Shown here: one piece after another, positions 2,628-57,800 of the stretch
How positions within the stretch are numbered: the first letter of the stretch is position 1
How the letters are laid out: every line of letters starts with the position of its first letter
DNA from: Deltaproteobacteria bacterium
Lineage (GTDB): Bacteria > Myxococcota_A > Polyangia > Polyangiales > Houyiibacteriaceae
NCBI GenBank assembly: GCA_034670305.1
Contig: JAXMNT010000043.1
Span: 1 to 62,928, forward strand
Direction of reading: 5' to 3'
DNA: 62,928 bases
The notes under the pieces: generated by a model
The model's database searches: none
Told to the model about the DNA's origin: nothing
The model's input: only the letters and a program-made list of their open reading frames with translations
Translations under genes and position numbers: made by a program

Positions 2628-4430
2628 ATGACCTTGTTCCCACGCATCTTCACCCTCGCCGTCCTCGCCGCATGCGCGGGCACTGCCCCCAACACCGAAG
2701 CGCCGCGTGCGGCCGACCCGCCGCCGGTCGAGTGGCACGAGTGGGAAGCGGCCTCCTTCGAACGCGCAGCGCGCGAGGGCAAACACCTTCTCGTCAGCGT
2801 GCAGGCAGCGTGGTGCCACTGGTGCCATGTGATGAATGACGAGACGTTCGGCGACGCCGAAGTGCGGGCGCGACTCGCCACGGACTACATCGCGATCAAG
2901 GTGGACTCCGACGCGCGCCCCGACCTCGCCGAGCGGTTTCAGGACTACGCGTGGCCCGCCACCATCCTGCTGAGTCCCGAGGCCGAGGTCGTGCTGCCGC
3001 TTCGAGGTTTCCGCCCGCCGCGCGTCTTCGCGGGGCTCCTGGCCGATGTACGCGCCGGCCGCGAAGTGCACGACACCGACACCCCGGTGGCGCGTCCGAT
3101 CGACGACCTCGACACCGTGCGCTCGGAAGCGACCGCGCTGCTCGACCGACTCTACGACGAGGACGCCGGCGGCTGGGGCGCGCGTCAGAAGTACCCCTAC
3201 GCCGGACCGCTCGAACACGCGATGTTCCGCGCGGCGGTGCTGGGGGAAGGCGAGACTTGGAATGCGCGGATCGAGCACACCCTCGCTGGCCACGCCGCAT
3301 TGATCGACCCGGTGTTCGGCGGCGTCTTTCAGTACTCACTGCCGGGCACAGGCGACGACCGCGCCCGCGGCACAGAGGCGTGGACGCGTCCACACTTCGA
3401 GAAGATCACCGGCGTGCAGGCCGACGCGTTGCAGACCTTCGCGCAGGCCTGTCTGAGCGACGAACGCTGGTGCGCCTCCGCCGAAGACGTGCGTCGCTAC
3501 GTCGCGCGTTTTCTGACTTCGGACACGGGCGGCTTCTACACGAGCCAGGACGCGGACCTCGATCACGAGACCACCGGCACCACGTACTACGCGTGGGACG
3601 AAGCGCAGCGCCTCGAACACGGCGTGCCCCGGGTCGATCAGAACGTCTACGCGGATCTGAACGGCCGGCTCATCGTCGCGCTGGCCGCACTCGACGCCGC
3701 CCGCCCGGAAAGCGAAGCGCGCGCCATGGCGGTCGCTGCGGGCGAGTTCGTGGAGACCACACTTCGTGCGGAAGGTGCGGAGCTCTTCGACCATGGCGGT
3801 GAGGGCACCGGCCTGCAGCATCTCGGCGACACCGCCTGGATGCTCCGCGCCGAACTCGCGCTCTACGAAGCCACCGGCGATCCCGTCTGGCTCGAGCGCG
3901 CAGAGCGCAGCGCCCGTGGCCTGCGCACCCTGGTCTCTCCGGCCGGCGCCCTCTTCGCCCACACCGAAGACCCCGCCGCGGCGGGTGTGTTCGCCGAGCG
4001 CCGCACCCCGCTGACCCTCAACGGCGTCGCCGCGCGCGCGCTGATCCACCTGCACCGCCTCGACCACGACGAAGCCCACCTCGAACTCGCCCTCGGCGCC
4101 CTGCGCGCCGTCGCCGACGCCACCGAACTGCGTCGGCGCGGCCGCCGCATCGGCGAGTACCTGATGGCGCTCGAAGCACTCCGCGCCCCGTACGTACTCT
4201 TGAGCGTCGTCGGCCCCGACGACGCGCCCACCCGCGCCCTCGTCGCCGCAGCCCGCGCCCTCCCCCACCCGAACGCGCTGGTCGAAGTGGGCCGCCCCGG
4301 CGAAAGCCGCTACCCCTACCCCGGCGAACCCGCGGTCTACCTCTGCAACGAATCCCGCTGCTCCATCCCCGTCACCGATCCAAACGCCCTCCCCTCCGCC
4401 GCCACCCGCTTCCTGGCCCCAGCGGAGTAG
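2628..4430 (+). CDS. DUF255/YyaL (SPATA20-like) thioredoxin-domain lipoprotein
   Basis: Lipobox [26 protein letters not shown] and [10 protein letters not shown] motifs. Confidence 0.88.
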
Positions 4431-4433
4431 ACA

Positions 4434-4717
4434 GCGTCGGCTTCGGCTTCGGCTTCGGCGTCGGCGTCGGCGTCGGCGTCGGCTTCGGAGTCGGAGTCGG
4501 CGTCGGCTTCGGCTTCGGCGTCGGCTTCGGCTTCGGCGTCGGCTTCGGCTTCGGCGTCGGAGTCGGCGTCGGCTTCGGCAGCGGCTTCGGCGTCGGCTTC
4601 GGCAGCGGCTTCGGCGTCGGCTTCGGCGTCGGCTTCGGTTTCGGTTTCGGCTTCGGAGTCGGGCTCGGCTTCGGAGAACTCCGGGCACACGGGCACGGGC
4701 ACGGGCACGGCTTCGGC
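4434..4717 (+). repeat. TCGG-NN hexamer array ending in a (GGGCAC)n block
   Basis: TCGGCT/TCGGCG/TCGGAG units 4434-4675, then gggcac repeats 4683-4710; between convergent genes. Confidence 0.95.
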
Positions 4718-4756
4718 GCCAACGTCGAGCCAGCCGCAGCCGCCCCCAAGCGCCCG

Positions 4757-5410
4757 CTACGTGCCGAAGCTCAGAACGAACGCGTCGAACGCATCGCTCG
4801 CGGACTCGACCGTCGCTTCTGGACCGACGAGTTTGAAGAACACCGGGCCTGCCGGCGCCTGGACGATCGCGCCGAGCAAACGCTGCCCCGCCTGCGTTCC
4901 ACCGCCCGCCATCATGCCGGCGGAGAAGTTGCCGCGTACGTCGACGAGATGAACCGAGAGCCCGCCCACGGTGCGCTCGCTCGTCTCCGCTTCGGCCGGC
5001 GTGCCATCCGCTTTCCGGAACTGACCGACCCAGCGCGCGATGTTGTCGTCGACCGACCCACCCATGCCGGGGAAGTGGAACACCGTCATCTCGGCTTCGC
5101 CGGCGCTGCCTGCAATCGCGTACTCGGCGTTGCGCATCGGACGGGTCGGCCGCCGGTAGACGAACGTCTCGGGCGCCGACCACTTCATGCCGCCGAGCAC
5201 CGGAGATGCGGGGTCGAACGGCGTTTGGGGCGGAACCGCGGTGCGCTCCTCCGGTCCTGTCTCGACCACGGTCGTCTCAGCCGGCGGCGGGGCCTGGATC
5301 TCACTCGCCGGCGGCGGCTCGGGTCCCCGGTTGCACCCCAGCACGCCCAGGGCAATCGCGGTCAACAGGAGGAACGAAGTGGCAGCAGCTCGGAACATGC
5401 GGCGAATCAT
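4757..5410 (-). CDS. Lipoprotein of unknown function
   Basis: Lipobox VLGC, Pro-rich linker, then a conserved-looking domain (MRNAEY...[15 protein letters not shown]...FFKLVGP). Confidence 0.75.
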
Positions 5411-5455
5411 ACGTCGGTTCCGACGGAACGCGAGCGGTCGGTGCCAGAGCTGCGT

Positions 5456-6202
5456 TCAGCCGAGTGAGAGCCCGCCGTCCAGGACCAGGTCCGTCCCGGT
5501 CATCCAGCCCGCATCGATCACGAAGAGCACGGCCGCAGCGATCTCTTCGGCGCGCCCGAACCGCCGGAGCGCGTGCTGCCCCCGCAGGGCCTCGAGTTCG
5601 GCTGGTGGGCGGGCGGCGATCATGTCGGTCTCGACGACGCCCGGCGAGATGCTGTTGACCCGCACGTGCGGCGCGAGCTCGAGCGCGAAGGTGCGCGACC
5701 ACGCCACCATGGCGGCTTTGGTCGCGCCATAGACCGCGGTGCCGGGCGCGCTGCGGTGGGCCAAGGTGCTCGCCACGTTGACGATGACGCCGCGGGTCCG
5801 GACGAGGTGGGGTGCGGCCGCCTGCGCGATCATCATCGGCGCGGTGAGGTTGACCGCGACCTGCGCCGCGAGCGCGTCCGGCGAGATGGTCCCGGTCGCC
5901 TCGTAGTGCACGATGCCGGCGCACTGAACCAGCACGTCCAGCCCACCGAGTTCGCTCACGGCCGACGACACGAGCGCGTCCCGTGGCCCCTCGAGCGCGA
6001 GGTCGCCGACGACGGCGGTCATGCGGTGTTTGTGGTGGCGGGCGACTTCCTTGAGGGCGCCGACATCGCGGCCGGCGCACACCACGTCGTCTCCACGGGC
6101 CGCCAGCGCAATCGCCACGGCGCGCCCGATTCCGCGGCTCGCCCCCGTCACGAGGACCCGGTGCGGATTGGCGATGGTCTTGCGTTCGTCGTCTGCGTTC
6201 AT
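5456..6202 (-). CDS. Short-chain dehydrogenase/reductase (possibly pteridine-reductase-like, from context)
   Basis: TGASRGIG, YGATK catalytic YxxxK, VRVNSISPG, DGG. Confidence 0.9.
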   Translation of the reverse strand: MNADDERKTIANPHRVLVTGASRGIGRAVAIALAARGDDVVCAGRDVGALKEVARHHKHRMTAVVGDLALEGPRDALVSSAVSELGGLDVLVQCAGIVHYEATGTISPDALAAQVAVNLTAPMMIAQAAAPHLVRTRGVIVNVASTLAHRSAPGTAVYGATKAAMVAWSRTFALELAPHVRVNSISPGVVETDMIAARPPAELEALRGQHALRRFGRAEEIAAAVLFVIDAGWMTGTDLVLDGGLSLG

Positions 6203-6213
6203 CGTCTGCGCCC

Positions 6214-6966
6214 CTAACCTTGGCCGACGATCGGACCCCACGGGGGCTCGGATTGCACGTCCGCCGGTTCCCCGGACACCTCGATCTCGTCCTCCGGCAT
6301 GAACCGGGGAAGATCGATGCAGAGGATCGACTGCCATCGCTCGGTGGGGTTGTCGTAGCGGTGGGCGGCGCCGCGCGGCCATCGGTGCACGGTGCCCGGC
6401 TGGATTGGCTGCGACTGACACATCAGTCCATCGGTCAGCACCATCTCGCTCTCGCGCATCACCTTGTGCATGTGCAGCGGGATGCCTTGGCCGGGCGCGA
6501 TGTTGAGCCGGTAGATGCCGGCGTCGCGCGTCTCTTCGATGACGTCCACCGACCCCCAAGGTTTGGTCTCCTGCCCGACCTTGCACCAGCTCTGGTCGCG
6601 CCGGATCTCGAGCGAGGGCGTCGCAAAGCCGCGCAGCGCGCCGGGTTTGGTGAGTTTGACGACGACCTCGTCAACGGTTGCGCGTTTGGCACCCGGCGCC
6701 GCGGGCGCGAGCATCAACTTCGCGAGCGTGTGCGCGGCGGTCTCGAGCAACCGAAAGCGCGCGCTCCGGAGTACGAAGACGATCTGAGACGCGACCGCGC
6801 CGTAGTCGACGGTCGAGTGCACCGACTCGGTCTCCGCCGCTTCTTCGGTGTCCAGCATGAGCTGCACGTCCACCCGCAGGGGCTGCGACGCGTGCCGTTC
6901 GTGCGGGTACATGCCGACGACACAGTCCACGCGCAGGTCGTGGATGCGGACGATGTCGCGCTTCAT
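6214..6966 (-). CDS. folB: Dihydroneopterin aldolase fused to a C-terminal cupin domain
   Basis: IHDLRVDCVVGMYPHER..QPLRVD, TVDY, FRLLET, KLTKP; C-terminal IPLHMH...E...GAAHRY cupin motifs. Confidence 0.85.
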   Translation of the reverse strand: MKRDIVRIHDLRVDCVVGMYPHERHASQPLRVDVQLMLDTEEAAETESVHSTVDYGAVASQIVFVLRSARFRLLETAAHTLAKLMLAPAAPGAKRATVDEVVVKLTKPGALRGFATPSLEIRRDQSWCKVGQETKPWGSVDVIEETRDAGIYRLNIAPGQGIPLHMHKVMRESEMVLTDGLMCQSQPIQPGTVHRWPRGAAHRYDNPTERWQSILCIDLPRFMPEDEIEVSGEPADVQSEPPWGPIVGQG

Positions 6967-7010
6967 CGATGGGCCGGTGGGGTGGCTGGGATCACGGAGC
7001 GCACGGTAGC

Positions 7011-7115
7011 AGAAGCCAATGCCGAGGCCGATGCCGAAGCCGACGCCGACGCCGATGCCGATGCCGATGCCGATGCCGAGGCCGATGCCGATGCCGAGGC
7101 CGAGTGCCGATGCCG
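7011..7115 (-). repeat. Hexamer array (GCCGAT/GCCGAG on +, i.e. TCGG-NN on -)
   Basis: Tandem gccgat units between divergent folB and aminotransferase genes. Confidence 0.95.
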
Positions 7116-7180
7116 CCCCGACCTCCCCGACTCTTCGTTCGTTCGGCAGGGCGGGAGGATCTGCTACACGGTGGCGCACG

Positions 7181-8500
7181 ATGTCCGACGCAGCCGACGA
7201 GACCTCTTCCACCACCCTCCCCACCAGCGCTCGATCTCCGAACGATGGGCCGAGTGCGTTTCGGCGCGTGCCGCGAACCGGCGTGATCTACGTGAGTGAA
7301 GCCGCCCGGGCACGTGGGTTTCATCTCGGCAAAAGCGGCACCGGCCCGGAGGCGTGGTGCAACTTGGGGCAGGGCCAGCCGGACACGGGCCACCTAGACG
7401 GGGCGCCGGCGCGGCTGACCTCGATCGACATCCTCCCGGACGACCTCGACTACGCGCCGGTCGCCGGACTCATGGAGCTCCGGGAGGCCGTCGCCGCGAT
7501 GTACAACCGGCTCTTCCGCCAGGGCATGCCCTCGCAGTACGGACCCGAGAACGTGGCCATCTGTGGCGGCGGACGGGTGGCGATCATGCGCGCGTGTGCC
7601 GCCATCGCGCCGGTGCACCTCGGACACTTCCTGCCGGACTACACCGCGTACGAAGAGCTCCTCGATGTGTTCCGGCGCTTTCAGCCGATCCCGATCCTGC
7701 TCGATCCGGATCGCGGGTACGAGTTCACCAACGAGGAACTGCACCGCGAGATCCTTGGGCGCGGGCTCGGCGCGATCTTGATGAGCAACGCCTGCAATCC
7801 GACCGGCAAACTCGTGCAAGGCGAGGTGCTCTCCAAGTGGGTCCACACGGCGCGCACGCTCGGCTGCGCGCTCTTGATGGACGAGTTCTACTCCCACTAC
7901 GTGTGGGCCGGCCCAGAGAAGATCGTGAGCGCCGCGCGCTACGTCGAAGACGTGAACCGCGACCCCGTCGTGATCTTCGACGGCCTCACCAAGAACTGGC
8001 GGTACCCCGGGTTCCGCGTGAGCTGGATCGTGGGGCCCAAACACGTCATCGACTCCGCCGCGAGCGCCGGGTCCTTCCTGGACGGCGGCGGTTCGGCGCC
8101 GATGCAGCGGGCCGCCATTCCGCTCCTCGAACCCGCCTACGTGGCCGCCGAGACCGACGCCCTGCGCGCCGCCTTCGCGCCGAAACGACAGCTCTTGCTC
8201 GATCGCCTTGGCGCGATGGGTGTGAAGTTCGACCTCGCGCCCGAAGGCACGTTCTACGCGTGGGGCGACGTGCGGAACCTGCCCGGTTCACTGTCGACGG
8301 GCGAAGGGTTCTTCGAAGCTGCGCTCGACCACAAGGTCATCACGGTGCCGGGACACTTCTTCGACGTGAACCCGGGCAAACGCCGGATGGGTCGTCCCTC
8401 CCGGTTCCGGCACCACGTGCGCTTCAGCTTCGGCCCGAACATCGAGGTGCTCGAAGAAGCGATGAAGCGGCTCGAAGCCGTGGTGCGGGGTGCCTCGTGA
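7181..8500 (+). CDS. PLP-dependent aminotransferase, class I/II
   Basis: NLGQGQPD, SNACNPTG, DEFY, GLTKNWRYPGFRVSW (PLP Lys), VRFSF. Confidence 0.9.
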   Translation: MSDAADETSSTTLPTSARSPNDGPSAFRRVPRTGVIYVSEAARARGFHLGKSGTGPEAWCNLGQGQPDTGHLDGAPARLTSIDILPDDLDYAPVAGLMELREAVAAMYNRLFRQGMPSQYGPENVAICGGGRVAIMRACAAIAPVHLGHFLPDYTAYEELLDVFRRFQPIPILLDPDRGYEFTNEELHREILGRGLGAILMSNACNPTGKLVQGEVLSKWVHTARTLGCALLMDEFYSHYVWAGPEKIVSAARYVEDVNRDPVVIFDGLTKNWRYPGFRVSWIVGPKHVIDSAASAGSFLDGGGSAPMQRAAIPLLEPAYVAAETDALRAAFAPKRQLLLDRLGAMGVKFDLAPEGTFYAWGDVRNLPGSLSTGEGFFEAALDHKVITVPGHFFDVNPGKRRMGRPSRFRHHVRFSFGPNIEVLEEAMKRLEAVVRGAS

Positions 8501-9663
8501 AACCGCGCGCACGGCTCTCGTACGTGCTCTCGACGCTGCTCGCCGCGTGCGGCGGCACCCCGACGACCGTCGACCACCCCCGGCCGATGGCGGACATCGT
8601 TCAGCTCGCCACCGGACTCGAGCACACCTGCGCGCGACTGCTGGACGGAGATGTATGGTGCTGGGGCGACGGCACCCGCTCGGTGCCGTTCGAAGATGGA
8701 CCGCGCGGTCCGGTGCCGCCCACGCGCGTCGAAGGCGTGTCCGGCACCCTCGACCTCGACGTGGGCACCCACAGCGCCTGCGCCGTCACCGAGGACCGCG
8801 GGGTGCTCTGCTGGGGCCTCGACACCCACGGCGGCCTCGGAGACGGGGAGACCGGTCTCGGCCAGCGCGCCCGCCGGCTGGCGACGCCGGTGGTTGGCGT
8901 GCGCGAGGCCGCCGAGGTCTCGGTCGGCGCCTACTTCGCATGCGCCCGCACCCAGACCGGGGAGGTGTACTGCTGGGGCAACGGGGAGCTCGGACAGCTG
9001 GGCGACGGACGGCGGCGCACGATGCGCGTGGCCACCCGCGCCACGGTCTCGGGCGCGACTCAGATCGAGTCTGGTCACGCCCACTCCTGCGCGGTCCTGG
9101 CCGACGGAACGGTCCAGTGCTGGGGCAGCTTTCGAGACGACGAGGGCCGCAACCAGGGCTCCGGCAGCGACCGTCTCGCACCGGAGACCGTCGCCGGCGT
9201 GGCTGGCGCAACCGCGATCGCGAGTGGCGGCGGGCACACCTGCGCGCAGACCGCGGGCACGATCGTGTGCTTCGGCGGAGGCACCTCCGAGACGCGCAAC
9301 TTCGACGAGCGCAGCGGCGAGGCCCTCGAGTCCCATGGCGTCGACCTGCCGCTCGCGCTCGAGCCGACGCCGCTCCCTGGGATCACGCCCACGTCGCCGG
9401 AGCGTCTGCCGCTCGCGGTGTCCCGCGATGCAGCCCACGTGTGCGTCCGGGCCCAAACGCGCCACTTCGACCTGAGCGGCGATGCGCCGACTCCGAGTTC
9501 CACGGTTTCCGTGCCATGCGCGACGCTTGTCTCCGCAGGCGTCGGCTTCGTGTGCGCCATCCGCAGCGGCCAAGTCCAATGCGCCGGCACGAACACCCAT
9601 GGAGAGCTCGGCACCGGAGACTCGGAACCGCGTGAAGGTGCGGTTGCGGTGGGTGGACTCTGA
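8497..9663 (+). CDS. RCC1-repeat lipoprotein
   Basis: GTG start overlaps upstream stop; lipobox LLAAC; repeated HTCA...VWCWG / GQLGDG units. Confidence 0.85.
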   Translation: MKPRARLSYVLSTLLAACGGTPTTVDHPRPMADIVQLATGLEHTCARLLDGDVWCWGDGTRSVPFEDGPRGPVPPTRVEGVSGTLDLDVGTHSACAVTEDRGVLCWGLDTHGGLGDGETGLGQRARRLATPVVGVREAAEVSVGAYFACARTQTGEVYCWGNGELGQLGDGRRRTMRVATRATVSGATQIESGHAHSCAVLADGTVQCWGSFRDDEGRNQGSGSDRLAPETVAGVAGATAIASGGGHTCAQTAGTIVCFGGGTSETRNFDERSGEALESHGVDLPLALEPTPLPGITPTSPERLPLAVSRDAAHVCVRAQTRHFDLSGDAPTPSSTVSVPCATLVSAGVGFVCAIRSGQVQCAGTNTHGELGTGDSEPREGAVAVGGL

Positions 9664-9676
9664 TAGTTTCCGCCCC

Positions 9677-10789
9677 ATGACGGAACGCCCGCGCCAGCGA
9701 CTTCGATCGCTCGGCCTCAAGATCGGCCGATACGACACCGGCGCACACAACGCCATCACCGACGTCGCGGGGGTGAAGGTGGGCCACTCCACGATCATCG
9801 AGGGGGACGCCGGGGCGCGCGTGCCCGGGACCGGCCCCATCCGCACGGGCGTCACGGCCATCTTGCCGGCCGCCGGCGACATCTTCGATGAGCGGGTCAT
9901 CGGCGGCGGCTTCGTGCTCAACGGCGCGGGCGAGGTCTCCGGCTTGACCCAGCTGCTCGAGTGGGGGTTGCTCGAGACGCCCATCTTCCTGACCAACACC
10001 CTCAGCGTCGGCGCGGTGTCGTCCGCCGCGGTCGCGCGGCTCGTGAAAGATCACCCGGGCATCGGGAGCGTGCACGACGTGCTGATCCCAGTCGTGGGCG
10101 AGTGCGACGACTCCTGGCTGAACGACGTCGCCGGCCAACACGTGAAGGCCAAGCACGTGAACGAAGCGTTCGACAGCGCGAGCGGCGGCGCCGTCCTCGA
10201 AGGCAGCGTCGGCGGCGGCACCGGCATGATCACCTGCGACCTGAAGGGCGGCATCGGCACCTCGAGCCGTGTCCTCCCCGAAGCCAACGGCGGCTACACC
10301 GTGGGCGTGCTCGTCATGAGCAACTTCGGCGAACTCAACGAACTGCGGGTCGGCGGCTTTCCGCTCGGCATGCGGCTCGAGGACCGGTTCCGGGATCATT
10401 CGCGCCGCCGCCACAACTACGGCTCGATCATCGCCGTCGTCGCCACCGACGCGCCCTTGATGAGCATGCAGGTCAGCCGCCTGTGCAAACGCGCCGCGCT
10501 CGGCATCGGCCGCGTCGGTTCCACCGCCGCGCACGGCAGCGGCGAGATCATCGTCGGCTTCAGCACCCGCAACCGGGTCCCCCGCGCGACCCAAACCGGC
10601 CTCGTCAAAGGCCTCGAAGTGCTCCTCGACACCCACATCAACCCGCTCTACCAAGCGGTCATCGAAGCCACCGAAGAAGCCATCCTCAACGCCCTCTGCA
10701 TGGCCGAACCCATGTCCGGCGCCGACGGCGCGTTCTGCCCCGCCCTCCCGCTGGACGCCGTCGAAGAAGTCGCCCGCCTGATGACGTAG
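9677..10789 (+). CDS. DmpA-type (P1/S58) aminopeptidase
   Basis: NAITDVAGVKVGH, RTGVTAI, EGSVGGGTGM, KGGIGTSSR; autocleavage-type GSIIAVVATDAP; ATEEAILNAL. Confidence 0.9.
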   Translation: MTERPRQRLRSLGLKIGRYDTGAHNAITDVAGVKVGHSTIIEGDAGARVPGTGPIRTGVTAILPAAGDIFDERVIGGGFVLNGAGEVSGLTQLLEWGLLETPIFLTNTLSVGAVSSAAVARLVKDHPGIGSVHDVLIPVVGECDDSWLNDVAGQHVKAKHVNEAFDSASGGAVLEGSVGGGTGMITCDLKGGIGTSSRVLPEANGGYTVGVLVMSNFGELNELRVGGFPLGMRLEDRFRDHSRRRHNYGSIIAVVATDAPLMSMQVSRLCKRAALGIGRVGSTAAHGSGEIIVGFSTRNRVPRATQTGLVKGLEVLLDTHINPLYQAVIEATEEAILNALCMAEPMSGADGAFCPALPLDAVEEVARLMT

Positions 10790-10800
10790 CCCAGAATCCG

Positions 10801-10990
10801 GTTCGGCTCCGGCGTCGGCTCCCGCGTTGGCATCGCCATCGGCATCGCCATCGGCTTCGGCGTCGGATTCGGCGTCGGATTCGGCTTCGGCTTCGGCTTC
10901 GCCATCGGCTTCGGCATCGGCGTCGGCTTCGGCTTCGGCTTCGCCATCGGCTTCGGCATCGGCGTCAGCGTCGGCATCGGCTCCGGATCG
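10801..10990 (+). repeat. TCGG-NN hexamer array
   Basis: TCGGCT/TCGGCA/TCGGAT/TCGCCA units between co-directional genes. Confidence 0.95.
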
Positions 10991-11068
10991 ACCCCGGCAC
11001 CGCCCAGCAACCCCATCTCGCCGGACTCTTCTGGCGCGCTGCGCCCTCAGCGCGCAGACTCCGCGACC

Positions 11069-13096: not shown

Positions 13097-13100
13097 CGCC

Positions 13101-13393
13101 GGTTCGGCTTCGGAGTCGGAGTCGGAGTCGGCTTCGGAGTCGGCTTCGGTTTCGGCGTCGGCTTCGGAGTCGGCTTCGGCGTCGGCGTCGGCTTCGGCGT
13201 CGGCTTCGGCTTCGGCGTCGGCGTCGGCTTCGGCTTCGGAGTCGGCTTCGGCTTCGGCGTCGGCTTCGGAGTCGGCTTCGGCGTCGGAGTCGGCTTCGGC
13301 TTCGGCTTCGGCTTCGCTTCGGAGTCGGCGTCGGCCTCAGCGTCGGATTCGGCTTCGATTCGGACGGGCCACGGGCACGGGCACGCACACGGC
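13101..13393 (+). repeat. TCGG-NN hexamer array ending in a (GGGCAC)n block
   Basis: TCGGCT/TCGGAG/TCGGCG units, then acgggcacgggcacg; between convergent genes. Confidence 0.95.
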
Positions 13394-13407
13394 CACCTCC
13401 TACCCGC

Positions 13408-14679: not shown

Positions 14680-14733
14680 GACCCATCATGCACCGAAAGG
14701 CCCACTTCCTTCACGAAGTTGGCGAGATTTCTC

Positions 14734-15708: not shown

Positions 15709-15750
15709 CGAGAAACGGTATCGAAGTCGAGGCAGAAGCCGCACTTTTCG

Positions 15751-15810
15751 GCCACGGCGGGTCCGGCGCTGCGAAGCCTGCCGCCGCGTGGTTGGGGGTC
15801 GATCCCCAGC
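15751..15810. repeat. Two-hairpin palindromic element (GCGAAGC hairpin plus G/C hairpin)
   Basis: CCACGGCGG...GCGAAGC...CCGCCGCGTGG then TGGGG-GTCGAT-CCCCA; same architecture as 127-201. Confidence 0.5.
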
Positions 15811-15821
15811 GATATCCCCTG

Positions 15822-16462: not shown

Positions 16463-16703
16463 CCGTCGGCTTCGGCTTCGGGATCGGCTTCGGGATCGGC
16501 TTCGGCTTAGGCCGTCGGCTTCGGCGTCGGCTTCGGCGTCGGCTTCGGCGTCGGCTTCGGCGTCGGCTTCGGGATCGGCTTCGGCCGTCGGCTTCGGGAT
16601 CGGCTTCGGGATCGGCTTCGGGATCCGCTTCGGCCGTCGGCGTCGGCGTCGGCTTGGCCTTCGCTTGGGCATCGCCTTCGGATCGGGCACGGGCACGGGC
16701 ACG
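16463..16703 (+). repeat. TCGG-NN hexamer array ending in a (GGGCAC)n block
   Basis: TCGGCT/TCGGGA/TCGGCG units, then gggcacgggcacgggcac. Confidence 0.95.
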
Positions 16704-16769
16704 GGGCCTCGCCTTTCGGCTCGGCGGGCCTCGCCTTTCGGCTCGGCGGGCCTCGCCTTTCGGCTCGGC
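16704..16769. repeat. Three perfect 22-bp tandem repeats
   Basis: GGGCCTCGCCTTTCGGCTCGGC x3; the minus strand contains a GCC-GAAA-GGC hairpin. Confidence 0.95.
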
Positions 16770-16777
16770 GGCCGCGG

Positions 16778-20259: not shown

Positions 20260-21140
20260 CAGAAGAGGCCCTGGCCGAGCACCATCGCGGTGACCAAGTA
20301 GTCGAGGGCGAGGATGGCGACCGCGCTGTGCACGACCGAGCGGTTGGTCGCCCGCCCCACCCCCGCTGCGCCGCCCGTCGCGTAGAACCCCTGGCGGCAC
20401 GCGATGAGGCAGATGGTGCCGCCGAAGATGAACGCCTTGATCAGCCCCTGCATCACGTCGGGCCAGTCCACCAGCCACTGCATGCGGCCCACGAACACGC
20501 CTGGGTCGATGCCGAGCATCTTCACGCAGACGACGTACGCGCCGCACATGCCAATGACGTTGAACATCAAGGTCAGGATCGGGACCATGACGAACCCCGC
20601 CACGACCCGCGGCACCACGAGGTACTGCACCGGGTTGACCGCCATCACGACGAGCGCGTTGATCTGATCACTCACCCGCATCGAGCCGAGCTCGGTGGTG
20701 ATCGCGCTGCCCGCGCGGCTCGACACCATCAGGGCGCTGAACACCGGTCCGATCTCGCGGACCATGGCCATGCCGACCACCGCACCGGTCTGGTTCTCCG
20801 CCCCGAACTGCCGGAACCCGTCGACCAGCTGCAGGCCGAGCACGGCGCCGATGAAGAACCCGCAGAGGCCGACGATGAAGATCGATCCGATGCCGATGAA
20901 CTCCATCTGCTCGACGAAGATCCGTGCGCGGAACGGCCGACGAAACGTCCAGAGGAACGTCTGCCCCGCCAACCGCGCCAACGTGCCCAGCTCCTCCAAG
21001 GGCTGGAGCAAGAACGCCCCCACCCGCTCCGCTGCGGGCGGCGCCTCCTCCTCAGCCTCCCGAGTCTTCGGTGGCTGCGGGGTCTCCGGCTCCGTCTCCG
21101 CCGTCTCGGTACCGGCCGCAGGCGCGGTGGGATTGGCCAC
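20259..21140 (-). CDS. mlaE: MlaE-family ABC permease
   Basis: REIGPV.SALMV.SRAGSA.TTELGSMRVSDQI.AL, YLVVPR, GVGRAT..SVV. Confidence 0.92.
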   Translation of the reverse strand: MANPTAPAAGTETAETEPETPQPPKTREAEEEAPPAAERVGAFLLQPLEELGTLARLAGQTFLWTFRRPFRARIFVEQMEFIGIGSIFIVGLCGFFIGAVLGLQLVDGFRQFGAENQTGAVVGMAMVREIGPVFSALMVSSRAGSAITTELGSMRVSDQINALVVMAVNPVQYLVVPRVVAGFVMVPILTLMFNVIGMCGAYVVCVKMLGIDPGVFVGRMQWLVDWPDVMQGLIKAFIFGGTICLIACRQGFYATGGAAGVGRATNRSVVHSAVAILALDYLVTAMVLGQGLF

Positions 21141-21231: not shown

Positions 21232-21529
21232 GCATCGGCATCGGCATCGGCACCGGCATCGGCACCGGCATCGGGATCGGATTCGGCATCGGCATCGGAT
21301 TCGGCATCGGCATCGGCATCGGCATCGGCATCGGCTTCGGCATCGGCATCGGCATCGGCATCGGCATCGGCATCGGATTCGGCATTGGCTTCGGCTTCGG
21401 ATTCGGCATCGGCATCGGCATCGGCATCGGCATCGGCAGCGGCTTCTGCATCGGGATCGGCTTCGGCTTCGGGCTTCGGCGACGTCGGTTCGGTGTCACC
21501 ACGGGCACGGGCACGGGCACGGGCACGGG
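21232..21529 (+). repeat. TCGG-NN (mostly TCGGCA) hexamer array ending in a (GGGCAC)n block
   Basis: Long ggcatc run, then acgggcacgggcacgggcacgggcacggg; between alr and mlaE. Confidence 0.95.
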
Positions 21530-29006: not shown

Positions 29007-29807
29007 GTGCCTGCCCCCCGCATCTTCCGAGCCTACTCATGGAACGTGAACGGCATCCGGTCGGTCGCGACCAAGGGATGGAGCGCGTTTCTCAAGAAGG
29101 CGCGCGCCGACGTGATCGCGCTTCAGGAGACCCGAGCCCACCCGGATCAGCTGACCCCTGAGGTTCGCCAGCCCAAACGTTGGCGCACCAGTTACGTCAG
29201 TGCGGATCGCAAGGGATACAGCGGGGTCGCAACGTTCGCGCGGCGCGCGTTCGAGAGCCAAGCGTTCGCGGTCGGTCCAGAGTTCGATCCGGAAGGTCGG
29301 GTGCAAAAATCCACCTTCGGTGCGCTCACCCTCTTCAATGTCTACTTCCCCAACGGAAGCGGCAAGAACCGCGACAACGGCCGGGTTCCGTTCAAACTCG
29401 CGTTCTACCGCGCGCTCTTCGACCGCATCGAGCCGCTGAGGGCAGCTGGCCCAGTGCTCGTCGTGGGCGACTTCAACACCGCCCACCAGGACATCGACCT
29501 CGCGCGCCCCAAACAGAACCACAAGACCTCGGGTTTCCTCCCCGAGGAACGGGCCGAGCTCTCGCGGTGGCTCGACAGCGGATGGACGGACACGTTCCGC
29601 CACCTCCACCCGGACAAGAAGGACGTCTACTCCTGGTGGAGCCAACGCTTCGGGGTCCGGGAACGCAACGTCGGCTGGCGCATCGACCACATCCTCGCTT
29701 CGCCCTCGGTGCTGCCCCACCTCCAAGCCGCCCGCATCCACACCAAGATCATGGGCAGCGACCACTGCCCCATCAGCGTCGACCTGACCCCCACCGTCCT
29801 CGAGTAG
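29007..29807 (+). CDS. xth: Exodeoxyribonuclease III
   Basis: SWNVNG, LQET, YFPNG, GDFN.AH, YSWWS, GWRIDH, GSDHCP. Confidence 0.95.
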
Positions 29808-30118
29808 AAGCGGAAGCGGAAGCGGAAGCGGCAGCGGAAGCGGCAGCGGAAGCGGCGGCGGCAGCGGAAGCGGAAGCGGTAGCGGCAGCGGGTCGCGGTC
29901 GCGGTAGTGGTCGCGGTAGCAGTCGCGGCAGCGGTCGCGGTCGCGGTAGCGGTCGCGGAAGCGGAAGCGGATTCGGGATCGGCTTCGGCTTCGGGATCGG
30001 CTTCGGGATCGGCTTCGGATTCGGATTCGGCTTCGGGATCGGCTTCGGCTTCGGCTTCGGGATCGGCTTCGGCTTCGAACCAAGGGCAAGGGCAAGGGCA
30101 GGGGCAAGGGCAAGGGCC
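29808..30118 (+). repeat. Composite hexamer array: GCGG-NN block, TCGG-NN block, (GGGCAA)n end block
   Basis: gaagcg/gcagcg/gtcgcg units, then gcttcg/ggatcg/gattcg, then caagggcaagggcaagggcagggg. Confidence 0.95.
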
Positions 30119-40335: not shown

Positions 40336-40495
40336 GAGTCGGATTCGGATTCGGATTCGGCGTCCGGCTTCGGCTTCGGCTTCGGCTTCGGCTTCGGCTT
40401 CGGCTTCGGCTTCGGCTTCGGCTTCGGCTTCGGCTTCGGCTTCGGCGTCGGCTTCGGCGCCGGCTTCAGCGTCGGCTTCGCCGTGGGTTTCGGCC
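40336..40495 (+). repeat. TCGG-NN hexamer array
   Basis: TCGGAT x3, then a long perfect (TCGGCT)n run. Confidence 0.95.
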
Positions 40496-49349: not shown

Positions 49350-49401
49350 GCCTCAGCGTAGCCCAGGTGCGCCGCGCGTCGATCCGGAACCCACCGACGC
49401 T

Positions 49402-49581
49402 CGGGCTTCCGATTTCGGCGTCGGCGTCGGCTTCGGCGTCGGCGTCGGCGTCGGTTTCGGCGTCGGTTTCGGTTTCGGTTTCGGTTTCGGCGTCGGCGTC
49501 GGCGTCGGCTTCGGCTTCGGCGTCGGCTTCGGCTTCGGCGTCGGCTTCGGCGTCGGCGTCCGCTTCGGCTTCGGCGTCGGC
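49402..49581 (+). repeat. TCGG-NN hexamer array
   Basis: TCGGCG/TCGGTT/TCGGCT units abutting the methyltransferase stop. Confidence 0.95.
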
Positions 49582-50385
49582 CTAGCCGAGCCGCGCCTTC
49601 ATCACCGCGATCGCTTCCGGGTTCTCGTCGATCAGCACGTAGCCGCGACCGTTGCGCTGGGCCGCGTCACCGGTGGTGCCGCTGCCGGCGAAGAAGTCGA
49701 GCACCACGTCGCCGGGGGCGGAGTGGACCTTGACGACACGCTCGAGCACCCCGAGCGGTTTCTGGGTTGGGTAGCCGGTCTTCTCGGCGCCGTTGGTCGG
49801 CACGATCGTGTGCCACCAGACATCGGTCGGGGTCTTGCCACGCGCCCGCTTCTCGGGCGTCACCAACCCCGGCGCCATGTACGGGATGCGGTCCATCGCC
49901 TCGAAGTCGAAACAGTAGCGCTTTGGATCGCGCGTGTACCAGAGCAGCACGTCGTGTTTCGACGACCACTTCTTCTTGCTGCGGCCACCGAAGTCGTACG
50001 CCCAGACGATCTCGTTCTGGAAGGACGCCCGCCCAAACAATCCATCCAGCGCGACCTTCACGTAGTGCGACTCGCGCGGGTCGACGTGCACGATGAACGA
50101 CGCATCCTCGGTCGTGCACGGGATCGACGCTTCGACCCTCTCCATCAGCCACGGGACGTAGTCCTCAAACGAGTCCCGGTAGCTCCCGCTCTTCTTCACG
50201 ACATCCGCGTACCGCCGCCCCCCGAACCCGACGCGGGCGCCGTCCTTGTCCTGCGACGACTCGATGCGCCGCCGCTTCTGAACCTTGCCGGTGTTGAACG
50301 GAGGATCGATGTACACCAGCCGCGCGAACGCCCGAGGCAAGGTCGGAAGCACCGACAAACACTCCCCCAGCAAGACGTCCTTCAT
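49582..50385 (-). CDS. Beta-class N6-adenine/N4-cytosine DNA methyltransferase, orphan
   Basis: VYIDPPF (motif IV) N-terminal; [22 protein letters not shown] (motif I) C-terminal. Confidence 0.92.
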
Positions 50386-50444
50386 ACCCGCCCGCAGCCT
50401 ACCAGCAGTCCCTCGCCGTCGCGGCATCCGCGAAGGGGCTCGGA

Positions 50445-50577
50445 CGCATCGGCATCGGCATCGGCATCGGCTTCGGGCATCGGCTTCGGCTTCGGCCTCG
50501 GCGTCGGCTTCGGCATCGGCCTCGGCCTCGGCTTCGGCGTCGGCATCGGCTTCGGCATCGGCATCGGCCACGGCACC
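50445..50577 (+). repeat. TCGG-NN hexamer array
   Basis: TCGGCA/TCGGCT/TCGGCC units between divergent genes. Confidence 0.95.
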
Positions 50578-54692: not shown

Positions 54693-54808
54693 TGTGGAGA
54701 CCGTACCGCATTCGCGGCGGGCCACGCTGCGTTTGTGGTCTCAGCGGGGTCGCCGCGGAGAGGCGCCGTGGACCTGGGCCACGTGCCGGGAACTGCTACC
54801 GTCGCCCG

Positions 54809-57800
54809 GTGGAGGTCGCGCGCCATCGTCGAAGCGTCCAGCGGCGCTGGTTGGGTGGCGGGCTCGTCGCGGTGGCGGCTGGTTTCTGGCTGTTCTCGCG
54901 TGGACCGGCCCTGCATCAGAAGGCGACCATGGCGGGCGAGGTCTCGCTCGATGCGCTCGGCTTCGACACCGTTCTGACGGCCACGGCCACCGATCCCTGG
55001 TGGTGGTCGGTGCTCGCGGTGACGGTGAACTGGTTCGCGACCAACCGCGTCGGCATGGTGTTCGGCATCGTCTTCGGCGCGGGTCTGATGACCCTGCTCG
55101 CTACAACCGCACGGGAGGGTTCGGGGCCCGCGCGGCGCAAGGGGCTCTGGGGCGCGGCAACCGGCACGGCGGCGGGCGCACCGCTGGGTGTGTGTGTGAA
55201 CTGCGCGGCGCCGATCGCAGAAGGCCTCGCTGTCGGGGGCGCGAGCGCGGAGACCGCCATCGCGGCGGCCATCGCGTCGCCGACGTTGAACGTCGTCGCG
55301 GTGATCTTGCTGTTCACCCTGTTCCCACTCCATGTGGCGCTCGTGAAGATTGCGTTGCTGCTCGTGGTCCTGTTCGTCGTCGTGCCGGTGGCCTCGCGCC
55401 GCGCCCCCGCGAAGGCGCCCACGGCCCCCAGCATCCGACCAGCGGTGCCGGACGCGTCGGGACCTGCATTCCGGTCCGTCGTGGGGGCGTGGGCCCGGAA
55501 CCTCGTCTTGCTGGTCCGCCGCACGGTGCCGCCCATGCTCGCCGCCGGACTGCTCGGCGCCGTGATCATCCTCGTGCTTCCGCTCGATCGTTTGCCCGAA
55601 CTCATCGTGGCGGAGAGCGTGCCCGCGGCGCTTCTGTGGAGTCTCGGGCTGGCGGTGTTCGGAACGTTGCTGCCGGTCCCGATCACGTTCGACGTCATCG
55701 TCTGTGCGGTGCTCTACGCGGCGGGTCTGCCACTTCGGTACGTCGCAGTGCTTCTCTTCACGCTCGGGAGCTACAGCGTCTACGCCGGGTTCATCGTGGG
55801 CCGCGCGACTTCGTGGCGCGCGAGCGCGGTCGTCTTCGCCGGCGTCGTGACGCTGGGGGTGCTCGCCGGCGACCTGACCCAGACGTTCGACAACCGGGTG
55901 CGCCGGGCGGCACTTGGAGAGATCGATCGGCTCGAGGGAGACGAGCCCTGGCCGGCCGCGCCCGAAGAGGGCGCGACGACGGGCTTCGTCGTCGAGGACG
56001 GGCCGAGGGACCTCGCGATGCGGGCATCGTCCGGTTCCGAAGCGACACTGGCCTCGGTGGACGCGCAGGCGATGGGTTTGTGGGCGGCCGCTTCGGAGCG
56101 CGCACGGGCGGCCGAACGGAGTCTGCTCCGGCTGGAGTATCCGTTCGTGCAGGGGCGGGGACGGAGTCTGGCGGTCGCGGATGTGAACGGCGATGCGGTG
56201 GACGACCTGCTGGTGGTGGCGGATGGGAACGTCTTCGCGTTCGTGCAGCGGCTGGAGCCTGCGACGCACTTCGACCGACATCTGATCGCGACGGAGCAGA
56301 TGCTCGGATCGACGCCGCTGTTCGCGATGGCGGTGGACCGGGACGCGCGCGCGGGGGTGGACGTGTTCGTGGGGACGATGCGGGGCGGGGTGTGGCTGCG
56401 GCCGGAGGCGGCGGTGGCGGCGGCGGCAGAGACAGCGGCGGAGACAGCGGCAGAGACAGCGGCAGCGGCAGCGGCAGCGGCAGCGGCAGCGGCAGCGGCA
56501 GCGGCAGAGACAGCGGCGGCGGCAGACGCCGACTCCGACGCCGAAGCCGAAGCCGATGCCGAAACCGATGCCGACTCCGACTCCGACTCCGACTCCGAAG
56601 CCGAAACCGAAGCCGAAACCGAAGCCGACCCCGATGCCGACTCCGACTCCGACTCCGACTCCGAAACCGAAGCCGAAACCGACTCCGATGCCGACTCCGA
56701 CGCCGACGCCGAAGCCGATGCCGACTCCGATGCCGACTCCGACGCCGAAGCCGATGCCGAAGCCGACTCCGACTCCGATGCCGACTTCGCTGTCGGGTTG
56801 CGGCGGTATTTGGTTGGGGAGCGGGTGGGGGACGGGATGGTGGCGGCGGCGGCGTTTGGGGATGTGGATGGGGATGGGTTGGTGGACGTGTTGCTCTCGG
56901 AGTGGGGGGCGGCGTGGCGAAGTCCGTGGAAGACGGCGGGGGCGTCGCGGGACCGGCTGTTTCTTGCGAGCGGGGAAGTCGCGCTGCCGTCGACACCAGG
57001 AGCGGCGACGACCGCCCTCGTTGCGGACCTGGATGGGCGCGGTGGCATGGAGCTGTACGTCGGCCACGACTTCGGGGCGCCCGATGCGGTGTACGCGCGC
57101 GCGGATGGGTCCGGGTGGCGGCGGGACGATGCGCGCTTTCCCCAGACCACGCGGGACACCATGGGCGTGGCGCTCGGGGACTTGGATCGAGATGGTCGCG
57201 CGGAGTTGTTCTTCAGCGACATCGCGCACCCGGACGAGACCGGCTCTGCGCTGGAGGACGCGCAAGCGTGCGAGCAGAATGTCGAATGCGTCCGCCGCCG
57301 GGAAGAGACGCGGCGCTACCTGTCCCTGCGCCAACGGTCGTCCCCGGAAGAGTGCGCGCACGCCGGCGACCCGATCGACTGCCGGGCCGCGTTCTTCGTC
57401 GGACTCGCCCACACGTTTCCTGGGACCGCAGCGTGCGCGCTCCCCGCTGGCTGGCCGCGGTTGCGCGCGCTGTGTGAGTCGAACGCGGGGTCGGCGTTCC
57501 TTCCCGATCCGGACACACGCCGATTGGGCCCGCCGCAAACCCGCGGTCGCAATGTCCTGTTGCAGTGGTCGGACGAAACGGGGGGATGGTCGGTCGTCTC
57601 CGCACCGACCTTGGAACACCTTGGATGGACGTGGAACGCCGAGTTCGCGGACCTCGACGCCGACGGTCGGCTGGATGTCGTCGCCGCCACCGGCACCCCG
57701 ATCGAACTCAACCGCCCCGAGTCCAACGTCGCCCTTCGCCAGACCGCGCCCTTCACCTTCGAGCCCGCGTGGGGTTCACTCGACGACTCGGCCACCGCCA

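Follow-up and report, generated by a model that had tools for sequence, protein, structure and literature searches.

Oriented hexanucleotide arrays in the window

The window, by which we mean the whole 62,928-nucleotide stretch of one contig that was analyzed, belongs to a Myxococcota genome (Deltaproteobacteria bacterium; 7.9 Mb, 68% GC) with 641 oriented (TCGGCN)n arrays of a median length of 166 bp. The units of these TCGG-core arrays are period-6 copies arranged head to tail (as determined by TRF), which makes the arrays hexanucleotide microsatellites (SSR/VNTR) by definition. Nine arrays of the window carry TCGG on the plus strand and five carry CCGA on it. Throughout, upstream and downstream denote the 5′ and 3′ sides of the TCGG strand. 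Genome-wide, 320 of the 446 intergenic arrays come after a co-oriented gene, and the array starts at a median of 21 bp past the stop codon of the preceding gene. Inspection by eye revealed hairpins resembling intrinsic terminators in front of some arrays. The arrays of the window and their flanks are as follows.

3901..4430, plus strand: 3′ end of the thioredoxin-domain gene (2628-4430), with C-rich third positions towards the array (deviation +0.35, then +0.58)
4437..4674, plus strand: (TCGGCN)n array with 38 TCGG cores, then a (CACGGG)n tail to ~4710; between convergent genes
7022..7130, minus strand: inverted array, CCGA on the plus strand; upstream shift −0.12, the sole exception in the window
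10201..10789, plus strand: 3′ end of the S58 peptidase gene; third positions are rich in C, the last 80 codons having CG3 +0.63 versus +0.31 in the rest
10839..10980, plus strand: TCGG array after the S58 peptidase gene
13104..13363, plus strand: TCGG array with 41 cores; upstream flank 12901-13096 C-rich (+0.30)
16466..16768, plus strand: TCGG array split into two blocks; mild C-richness (+0.18) in the upstream flank, 16201-16429
20960..21140, minus strand: 5′ end of the MlaE gene, rich in G when read in the gene's sense (CG3 −0.55 in the proximal part versus +0.11 in the rest), the TCGG strand thus being C-rich
21235..21493, plus strand: TCGG array with a (CACGGG)5 tail at 21500-21529
29807..30117, plus strand: composite array (GAAGCG)n-(CGGCTT)n-(CAAGGG)n, with a C-rich gene end (29401-29807) on its upstream side
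40339..40493, plus strand: TCGG array; third positions are C-rich throughout the upstream gene, 39292-40329 (+0.56 to +0.80)
49401..49580, plus strand: TCGG array beside the 3′ end of the methylase gene
50440..50567, plus strand: TCGG array in front of the minus-strand DNA methylase gene (49582-50385); read in the sense of this gene, its 5′ part (49801-50385) is G-rich
56529..56784, minus strand: inverted array, in frame inside the plus-strand FG-GAP/ASPIC gene (54851-58165)
58181..58702, minus strand: inverted composite arrays (58181-58250 and 58470-58702), separated by a 12-mer block
62773..62926, minus strand: inverted array at the contig end

The mean (C−G)/(C+G) of the window is ~+0.015 on the plus strand. 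A preliminary description of this DNA had held that plus-strand genes ending at TCGG arrays are biased towards C, and we obtained values of +0.35 at 4240-4430, +0.27 at 10560-10789, +0.27 at 29640-29807 and +0.26 at 40140-40329. Minus-strand genes next to TCGG arrays likewise leave the plus strand C-rich (+0.19 at 50030-50385, +0.16 at 20960-21140). The sign flips, as had also been claimed, at the inverted array (56407-56786), with −0.27 at 56100-56406 and −0.32 at 56786-57200; these flanks are G-rich on the plus strand and hence C-rich on the TCGG strand. The upstream third-position shift is positive at nine of the ten scorable window arrays. Downstream it is positive at just two of five, and a 3′-side effect is not evident here. 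Window genes verified by Pfam and by orthologues carry the skew, and the third-position C shift of the thioredoxin-domain gene is absent from its orthologues.

Genome-wide size, sign and decay of the skew

Read on the TCGG strand, third codon positions near arrays are C-rich and poor in G and T. Genes were called with a crude codon-model caller of our own, and arrays with fewer than 30 scorable third positions on a flank were dropped from the per-array shift (145 upstream, 428 downstream). Of the 496 arrays that could be scored upstream, 440 have a positive shift (median +0.29; binomial p = 5.5e-75); downstream, 151 of 213 do. The upstream sign is the same whether the flanking gene runs in the TCGG sense (279 of 312 positive) or antisense to it (161 of 184, median +0.32); transcription-associated asymmetry was rejected on this ground, and the earlier claim that the skew is independent of gene direction is borne out.

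Single exponentials fit both flanks, with decay lengths of 281 ± 21 bp on the 5′ side and 76 ± 9 bp on the 3′ side and nearly equal amplitudes at the array edge (0.44 and 0.40 for the two flanks). The gradient is polar, with its longer reach on the 5′ side (281 versus 76 bp), and would be at most an indirect proxy for recombination. A count of all positions that makes no use of gene calls yielded +0.11 near arrays and ~0 beyond 700 bp. The gene setting makes no difference, the skew being +0.452 for convergent (n = 141) and +0.451 for tandem arrangements (n = 78), and nine arrays inside genes carry skew of the same sign on both sides. Non-coding spacers adjoining arrays are weakly skewed: values over the first 100 bp run from +0.04 to +0.15, and the spacer between stop codon and array has −0.05. 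These spacers are short, may turn over and contain terminators. The shift depends on unit number: it is 0 at 1-3 units, +0.12 at 4 (n = 35), +0.07 at 5-7 (n = 28), +0.29 at 8-15, +0.34 at 16-30 and +0.39 at more than 30 units, levelling off in the longer arrays. About eight or more units are required for the skew. The per-array shift is unimodal and weakly tied to the 80-kb regional skew (Spearman 0.16).

At 3′ gene ends before a TCGG-sense array (n = 198), the CG3 skew is +0.51 compared with +0.20 at 2,555 array-free 3′ ends, and the skew thus persists after control for gene ends. The corresponding values at 5′ gene ends after a CCGA-sense array (n = 51) and at 2,827 array-free controls are −0.18 and +0.13. 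Orthologues in five array-free relatives show no shift, as predicted if the skew is linked to the array; this comparison is between genera, with synonymous sites saturated. A gene-end or codon-usage effect was rejected on the strength of these orthologues and of the low values at array-free ends (+0.20 at 3′, +0.13 at 5′ ends). Other hexamer arrays lying away from TCGG arrays, (AAGCGG)n (n = 28) and (AGCGGC)n (n = 16), display almost no shift. Adjacent arrays are co-oriented in 268 of 552 cases; since neighbours are randomly oriented and the sign is set array by array, replication (leading/lagging) skew was rejected as well. Array orientation is weakly linked to the 60-kb skew, with 303 of 507 arrays in agreement and located on the C-rich strand.

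The arrays of three other genomes lack a long 5′ skew. The 5′ side is positive at 7 of 15 arrays in G012 (median −0.10; 3′ side positive at 16 of 18), at 2 of 11 in G294 and at 2 of 6 in G151. An array alone is therefore insufficient, and a lineage-specific factor must be assumed. Many arrays of these three genomes are located inside genes.

Base changes and competing explanations

Four-fold sites on the TCGG strand yielded, in both gene orientations, odds ratios of 2.0-2.4 for C/G, 1.7-2.1 for A/G and 1.5-2.7 for C/T. In sense genes, C at these sites rises near arrays from 0.478 to 0.674 with A flat (0.057 versus 0.058); in antisense genes, A rises from 0.062 to 0.086. At two-fold sites near arrays, GAA goes from 0.43 to 0.59 and GAT from 0.17 to 0.07, corresponding to changes of G to A and T to C. 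The preliminary description had called the TCGG strand C/A-rich: the C part stands, and the enrichment in A reduces mainly to loss of T and, at two-fold sites, to replacement of G by A. Within 100 codons of arrays, GC3 is 0.885 and 0.881 versus 0.857 at 3′ ends, and 0.864 versus 0.847 at 5′ ends, so that the raised synonymous-site GC characteristic of biased gene conversion is present. The change acts base by base, array-like 4-mers not being specially lost, and G runs are especially depleted near arrays.

Were the CCGA strand persistently single-stranded (in an R-loop, a gap or a slipped structure), loss of its cytosine (and adenine) by deamination would render it G/T-rich. The two-fold shifts of G to A and T to C on the TCGG strand and the rise of A at antisense four-fold sites are as expected from such chemistry, and the exponential decay is compatible with a gradient of exposure time. 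As ssDNA, moreover, the CCGA strand is exceptionally unstructured (−7 to −10 kcal/mol per 150 nt, worse than all 200 shuffles) whereas the TCGG strand folds on itself (~−34 kcal/mol per 150 nt), and an opened array would bare CCGA. GC3 rises instead of falling, however, and the main four-fold flux is from G to C, with A flat in sense genes; a four-state toy model in which deamination transitions alone were raised 2-10 fold gave A of 0.10-0.29 and a C/G change of just 1.1-2.3 fold. Read-through R-loops are further disfavored by a skew that is unchanged when the neighboring gene reads through the array in the CCGA sense. We consider deamination distinctly unlikely, and as the main chemistry it fits poorly in view of the rise in GC3 and the dominance of G to C. 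More mundane origins (replication skew, transcription-linked skew, a gene-end codon effect or a gene-calling artefact) are largely refuted and highly improbable. Array orientation does have its weak link to the 60-kb skew and the gene calls are home-made, but array-free gene ends lack the skew, its sign ignores gene direction, neighboring arrays are randomly oriented, the gene-call-free count exhibits the gradient, and the Pfam- and orthologue-verified window genes show it.

The signature of a rut site is a C-rich, G-poor stretch of ~80 nt that precedes the point of termination in the sense transcript. Selection on strand composition, for a C-rich, G-poor flank that would serve as a Rho loading (rut-like) zone stopping TCGG-sense transcripts before or in the hairpin-prone array, or for a DNA-level need of an array-binding factor, matches this signature in its C enrichment and G depletion. 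It is also in line with the especially depleted G runs, the location of most intergenic arrays shortly past the stop codon of a co-oriented gene, the greater skew at third positions than in spacers, and odds ratios that are roughly additive, like a fixation bias. Yet genes antisense to the TCGG strand show an equal or stronger effect, which also occurs at arrays inside genes, where a terminator would be harmful, has the same sign on the 3′ flank, and follows a smooth exponential past 600 bp rather than the outline of a discrete 80-nt element. It is difficult to believe that selection on single sites could produce odds ratios of 2-2.7 over hundreds of synonymous positions in ~600 loci, and some arrays lie, as judged by eye, beyond the terminator-like hairpins. 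With a C>G zone that is also antisense and intragenic, extends on a 281-bp scale and lies in translated sequence, rut-site composition was rejected, and selection appears unlikely. That arrays were instead seeded, or persist in a set orientation, at pre-existing local C>G skew is improbable. Among array-free 3′ ends, 11.3% have CG3 of at least 0.5 in the last 33 codons, bin-matched controls retain a raised gene-wide skew (0.20-0.28), and synonymous saturation between genera leaves room for a skew predating the arrays in the lineage. In the next three bins, however, matched controls have 0.278, 0.255 and 0.213 versus 0.419, 0.325 and 0.298 next to arrays, the 5′ class behaving alike; the gradient sets out from the array edge with equal amplitude on either side, and the skew increases with unit number. 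It also counts against such a reversal of cause that we know of no mechanism that reads several hundred base pairs of skew.

Arrays as putative start points of repair or exchange tracts

The centring on arrays, the dependence on orientation, the exponential decay, the unit threshold and the array-free orthologues fit a DNA-level process starting at arrays. The local strand-specific process proposed in the preliminary description is supported in its centring, orientation, decay and absence from array-free orthologues; the cytosine-loss chemistry offered there as an example fits poorly. We tentatively favor, short of real confidence, the reading that arrays start processive strand-specific repair or recombination tracts with asymmetric mismatch correction; recurrent nick/repair synthesis is viable as part of it. 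The bias may be mutational, may lie in fixation through repair or conversion, or may reflect selection. Processive tracts are suggested by single exponentials with near-equal edge amplitude and differing decay lengths. The weak skew of spacers argues against this reading, because a purely neutral bias at the DNA level would be expected to act there with no less strength.

TCGGCN arrays of about eight or more units would in this scheme be polar start points for strand-specific DNA processing tracts, and a constant chance of termination per base would give mean reaches of ~281 bp to the 5′ and 76 bp to the 3′ side of the TCGG strand. Within the tracts, differences on the TCGG strand would be resolved towards C (then A) and against G (and T), and codons would drift along where protein function permits, irrespective of gene direction. 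The bias would arise because the TCGG strand is repeatedly re-made or exchanged, either by gap repair, in which nicks or gaps in this hairpin-prone strand are filled in again, or by recombination from the array with Chi-like polarity, in which it would be the invading strand. Were mismatch repair to overlook C·C while correcting G·G and G·T efficiently, C would gain on the TCGG strand by either route, and the net result would be a strand-asymmetric biased gene conversion or repair. MutS, MutL and RecC are encoded in the genome; the RecC family match (PF04257, 185.8 bits) lies on contig C13 with a RecB-like frame adjacent, and the cognate enzyme expected for Chi is thus present.

In E. coli, Chi is over-represented on the leading strand and co-oriented with replication. 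Chi (RecBCD/AddAB) is a short, oriented, species-specific sequence with an effect to the 5′ side of the carrying strand, a pattern that the polar skew gradient of the arrays may resemble. The arrays, in contrast, are not co-oriented with replication-scale skew (leading-strand co-orientation was rejected, with 303 of 507 arrays in agreement, on the C-rich strand) and have a short 3′-side effect; they are at most candidates for a Chi-type role. Our literature search retrieved no report of Chi leaving compositional skew. Passages of two papers (PMC4614115, PMC5041463) describe Chi sites as short, polar and species-specific. Bacterial GC-biased gene conversion, a fixation bias of heteroduplex repair that mimics selection at synonymous sites and probably operates in most bacteria (passages of PMC4450053), resembles the array effect in the modestly raised GC3. 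Classical conversion, however, favors G and C equally and leaves no strand skew, whereas C prevails over G on one defined strand at arrays, so gene conversion would need a fixed strand polarity in exchange. Strand-biased mismatch resolution after breaks between tandem repeats is described for mouse cells in part of PMC9001825.

GC and AT skews, between leading and lagging strands or along mitochondrial ssDNA-exposure gradients, are graded and usually ascribed to strand-specific mutation or repair. Replication-associated asymmetry (the subject of a review, PMC3269012) is like that of the arrays in that one strand is enriched in G/T and the other in C/A at synonymous sites. It differs from the array domains, which span 0.1-1 kb around ~640 centres, take their orientation from the array (268 of 552 neighbors alike), and have G to C as dominant change with GC3 going up. 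Local strand asymmetry that decays with distance from a landmark is found at mammalian CpG islands and transcription start sites (passages of PMC2817419). Those asymmetries are tied to the initiation of transcription or replication and extend in both directions with opposite signs. The arrays differ in that their two flanks agree in sign, that gene direction plays no part and that a bacterial microsatellite serves as the landmark. Prokaryotic SSRs/VNTRs include hexanucleotide microsatellites such as these arrays; other hexamer arrays in the genome lack the skew, and our literature search found no orientation-linked base skew reported in genes flanking bacterial microsatellites.

A more far-reaching proposal, which we regard as doubtful, is that this lineage uses the arrays as its own polar points of entry for homologous exchange or for strand-specific gap repair, similar to Chi or nick sites. 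The same strand would always be exchanged or re-made, and C·C would escape mismatch repair; gene conversion would then be biased in a strand-asymmetric manner and alter codon usage, and to a slight extent protein composition, across several hundred base pairs around ~640 loci.

Local strand skews are normally taken as marks of replication or transcription. Here, C/G odds are changed 2-2.7 fold at synonymous sites in step with array orientation and with no other feature tested. This suggests a strand-specific DNA process, so far undescribed, that starts at arrays. If a DNA process is at work, the arrays would be active sites of strand-specific repair or exchange and the decay lengths an evolutionary record of tract lengths; if selection is, hundreds of genes would bear a codon-usage cost, together with a certain amino-acid cost, for a strand-composition signal beside repeats. 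Either way, repeats can reshape adjacent coding sequence, and local codon bias or GC skew need not signal expression or replication. Should the arrays indeed be polar entry sites, they would provide the first natural G-versus-C strand skew from gene conversion or repair bias, with tract lengths (281 and 76 bp) that could be read straight from the genome sequence.

The TCGG arrays and their surroundings

The basis of the analysis is one metagenome-derived genome, G000 (7.93 Mb, 68.1% GC, 105 contigs, the window being all of contig C43), together with home-made gene calls. Our own codon-likelihood caller yielded 5,946 genes, which take up 88% of the genome; these calls are crude, and results were backed where possible by counts independent of them. 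Tandem Repeats Finder (TRF) reported many period-6 arrays in the window. An array, that is, an oriented (TCGGCN)n hexamer repeat, was defined as at least eight TCGG (or CCGA) cores at a spacing of at most 18 bp, with cores making up at least 60% of the span. By this definition the window holds 14 arrays and the genome 641 (343 with TCGG and 298 with CCGA on the plus strand; median length 166 bp), the commonest units in the genome being TCGGCT, TCGGCG and TCGGCA.

According to our gene calls, 73% of the arrays are intergenic, and convergent-gene intervals are enriched for them (181/446; expected, about 16%). Read along the strand that carries TCGG (the TCGG strand), the neighbour 5′ of an array is a gene co-oriented with that strand in 320 of 446 cases. 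Genome-wide, a median of 21 bp separates the stop codon of a co-oriented gene from the start of the TCGG array, and the median array spacer is 56 bp where the neighbouring gene ends in the CCGA sense. The reading frame of the array relative to the upstream stop codon is mildly biased (115/83/73), and unit variants along the arrays display a slight, uninformative polarity.

In-phase TCGG runs in G000 are bimodal in size, with 300 loci of three units, 35 of four, 28 of five to seven and 662 of at least eight, which looks like either an expansion threshold or the insertion of ready-made blocks. Nearly all tandem-repeat periods in this genome are multiples of three (TRF rows: period 6, 1,375; 12, 663; 15, 408; 18, 562; 21, 308; periods 7, 8, 10 and 11, 6–15 each), and this holds although the TCGG arrays are mostly intergenic. 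Missing mismatch repair was rejected as an explanation of the arrays, G000 and four relatives alike possessing MutS_I and MutL_C.

The two strands of an array differ in predicted folding. For 150-nt segments at 4437-4586 and 13104-13253, the TCGG strand yielded −34.3 and −33.1 kcal/mol, no better than shuffled sequences, and the CCGA strand −10.3 and −6.8 kcal/mol (z = +6.05 and +5.61), with all 200 shuffles folding better. The long hairpins predicted for the TCGG strand, at about −34 kcal/mol, contain G·T pairs.

Other repeats adjoin the arrays. Repeats of (CACGGG)n or (CAAGGG)n follow TCGG arrays immediately on their 3′ side, in the same strand (4674-4710, 21500-21529, 30081-30117 and 284-316); by their sequence, these G3N3 repeats look like G-quadruplex motifs. 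Genome-wide, a G-tract tail occurs within 85 nt downstream of 153 of 626 arrays and upstream of 27. Composite arrays of GAAGCG, CGGTCG, GCTGCCGCTGAC, GCTGACTCTGCT and other hexamers or 12-mers also border TCGG arrays (29807-29971, 28768-28927, 58294-58468 and 62555-62771), their units on the TCGG strand being mostly NNNCGG or NNNGGG. The inverted array at 56417-56785, with CCGA on the plus strand, is in frame within an FG-GAP/ASPIC-UnbV gene (54851-58165, plus strand) that has Pfam matches on either side of it; the array would encode a linker rich in Ala, Asp, Glu and Ser.

Skew of the flanking DNA

The preliminary description had reported a strand skew near arrays whatever the direction of the gene. 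The bias is present in every segment it named, and gradients are visible in a 300-bp table of the window. Skew, (C−G)/(C+G), taken over all positions of the TCGG strand, a count that needs no gene calls, amounts genome-wide to +0.11 in the 150 bp 5′ of arrays and to +0.09 to +0.11 in the 100 bp 3′ of them, and drops to about 0.01 farther out. At third codon positions the skew (CG3), followed over distance and split by coding strand, likewise rises toward arrays in both gene senses: on the 5′ side from +0.18 to +0.49 in sense genes (those coding on the TCGG strand) and from −0.13 to +0.26 in antisense genes. This rise, or shift, on the 5′ side is above zero at 440 of 496 scorable arrays (279/312 with sense genes, 161/184 with antisense genes), with a median of +0.29 and a unimodal distribution; on the 3′ side, 151 of 213 arrays have a positive shift. 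Among the arrays of the window, the shift is positive at 9/10 on the 5′ side and 2/5 on the 3′ side.

The skew decays over different lengths in the two flanks. Exponential fits gave an amplitude of 0.44 with a decay of 281 ± 21 bp for the 5′ flank, and 0.40 with 76 ± 9 bp for the 3′ flank, where the effect is limited to about 100 bp (n = 151) and is almost lacking in genes that start there (n = 59). Beyond the 3′ end of the plus-strand array 13104-13363, the called gene 13408-14679 (minus strand) has the opposite skew: for more than 1 kb it is G-rich on the plus strand by 0.25–0.45. This gene has a low coding score and may be miscalled.

Base composition near the arrays changes in all synonymous families. 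On the TCGG strand, C replaces G at four-fold sites; at two-fold sites, A replaces G among the purines and C replaces T among the pyrimidines. What both gene classes share is that the TCGG strand loses G, most markedly before a C. Amino acids move slightly, with Pro and Thr up in TCGG-sense genes and Gly and Val up in CCGA-sense genes. G+C content at third positions (GC3) is raised (0.885 and 0.881 vs 0.857), and the skew of non-coding spacers is weak.

Base frequencies at four-fold sites within 200 bp of arrays and in the control
Sense genes, near arrays (n = 10,636): A 0.057, C 0.674, G 0.236, T 0.033
Sense genes, control: A 0.058, C 0.478, G 0.402, T 0.062
Antisense genes, near arrays (n = 6,212): A 0.086, C 0.542, G 0.318, T 0.054
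Antisense genes, control: A 0.062, C 0.402, G 0.478, T 0.058

The shift also varies with the number of units: it is zero at 1–3, +0.12 at four (n = 35), +0.07 at 5–7 (n = 28), +0.29 at 8–15, +0.34 at 16–30 and +0.39 at more than 30 units. Arrays of other hexamers over 400 bp away from any TCGG array have almost none (AAGCGG, n = 28; AGCGGC, n = 16). The G-tract tail plays no role in the skew, the shift being 0.327 with a tail and 0.340 without.

Origin of the skew

The skew has a cause linked to the array and the way it points, and both coding senses of the DNA are affected. With distance from the array edge the effect is lost at a constant rate per base, and on the TCGG strand C, and less so A, is favoured at the expense of G and T.

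Ordinary causes or an artefact are extremely improbable as its source. In kind the skew is akin to those of replication and transcription, but it lacks the features that define them. Replichore skew was rejected, as neighbouring arrays share orientation in 268 of 552 cases; array orientation is weakly linked to 60-kb skew (303/507 agree). Read-through out of the gene next to an array has no bearing on the skew (5′ skew +0.452 in convergent and +0.451 in tandem arrangements), and arrays inside genes with a good coding signal on both sides (n = 9) have skew of equal sign on either side. Array-free gene ends reject a gene-end effect: among genes of at least 900 bp with a score of at least 60, CG3 at 3′ ends preceding a TCGG-sense array (n = 198) is +0.51, declining to +0.21 at 600–900 bp, vs +0.20 to +0.14 at 2,555 array-free 3′ ends, and at 5′ ends just after a CCGA-sense array (n = 51) it is −0.18, vs +0.13 in 2,827 controls. 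Avoidance of array-like words, as a guard against slipped mispairing with the array, was likewise rejected; TCGG, CGGC and GGCT have the observed/expected ratio of controls, and array-like 4-mers are not additionally depleted.

The remaining alternatives concern selection, chemistry and the order of events. Selection for a C-rich, G-poor flank on the TCGG strand, for instance a rut-like one, is unlikely: antisense and intragenic flanks are affected equally, the 3′ flank is involved too, the exponential is long, and selection at each site would have to be strong. The preliminary description had proposed single-stranded exposure with cytosine loss on the CCGA strand, or nick/repair synthesis. 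As the main chemistry, such cytosine loss is at odds with a toy model, in which deamination of the exposed strand produces more A and little gain of C, and with GC3, which should fall but rises; we regard deamination or exposure of the CCGA strand alone as decidedly unlikely. That the skew preceded the arrays is very doubtful: controls matched on the skew of the last 33 codons drop to 0.278, 0.255 and 0.213 in the bins that follow, whereas array genes in those bins have 0.419, 0.325 and 0.298.

We infer, tentatively, that a class of explanation combining a re-made or invading strand with mismatch repair is the likeliest, at somewhat less than even odds. The TCGG strand would regularly be newly made or invading, and mismatch repair acting on it would turn G into C on one strand. 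G·G and G·T mismatches are well recognised by mismatch repair, and MutS, MutL and RecC are encoded in G000. In one version, the hairpin-prone TCGG strand would be nicked in the array, resected far in one direction and briefly in the other, and then refilled. In another, recombination would start at the array with Chi-like polarity and the TCGG strand would invade. The polarity of the skew gradient, an indirect proxy for recombination, is reminiscent of Chi; the arrays do not share Chi's genomic orientation bias. This recombination version would behave like biased gene conversion, and would also fit the GC3 rise and the weaker effect in spacers. Biased gene conversion is described as probably at work in most bacteria (PMC4450053). 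In the literature searched, no report of base skew in genes beside bacterial microsatellites came up.

Relatives and other array-bearing genomes

For eight window genes beside arrays we compared 37 orthologous loci in five relatives of the same family (a partial match in the genome G012, L043, was excluded); the fetched stretches contain no arrays. At 3′ ends, CG3 in G000 is +0.57 in the proximal 67 codons vs +0.29 in the remainder of the gene, and the corresponding difference in the five relatives is −0.06, +0.04, 0.00, +0.19 and −0.06. At 5′ ends the G000 values are −0.22 vs +0.11, with differences of −0.03 to −0.18 in the relatives. Across these loci, the array-free relatives lack a shift like that of G000. 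The S58 peptidase gene of the window has no match in any of the five; its best protein matches, among genome contigs, come from Myxococcota metagenome-assembled genomes at no more than 70% identity. Its CG3 excess over the last 80 codons is +0.32 in G000, and is positive in 4 of 14 distant orthologues (maximum, +0.21). Five window genes map to G012:C1 at about 8.79–8.82 Mb, in partial synteny with window 2.6–50 kb, and the G012 stretches fetched at these genes hold no arrays.

A search of metagenome contigs for close relatives gave a top protein identity of 52%. Contigs in sequencing runs X1-X3 are identical to the window and broken at arrays. Run X5, a marine metagenome, contains contigs of a relative at about 85–96% identity to window 2600-22599, also with many TCGG arrays. 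The differences from this stretch number more than 800, and C-to-G plus G-to-C is their largest class (286 of the 794 listed by kind).

In a sample of 401 genomes of the phylum, 51 have any match to a six-unit pattern, G000 with 4,024 matches, followed by G012 (286), G151 (143) and G294 (83). From these three genomes we fetched 24, 14 and 16 arrays, respectively, many of them in frame inside genes and with rough gene calls. On the 3′ side, the shift is positive at 16 of 18 G012 arrays. The long 5′ skew is lacking in all three genomes (positive at 7/15 arrays in G012, 2/11 in G294 and 2/6 in G151). As far as these genomes go, it therefore belongs to the G000 lineage rather than to the repeat sequence by itself.
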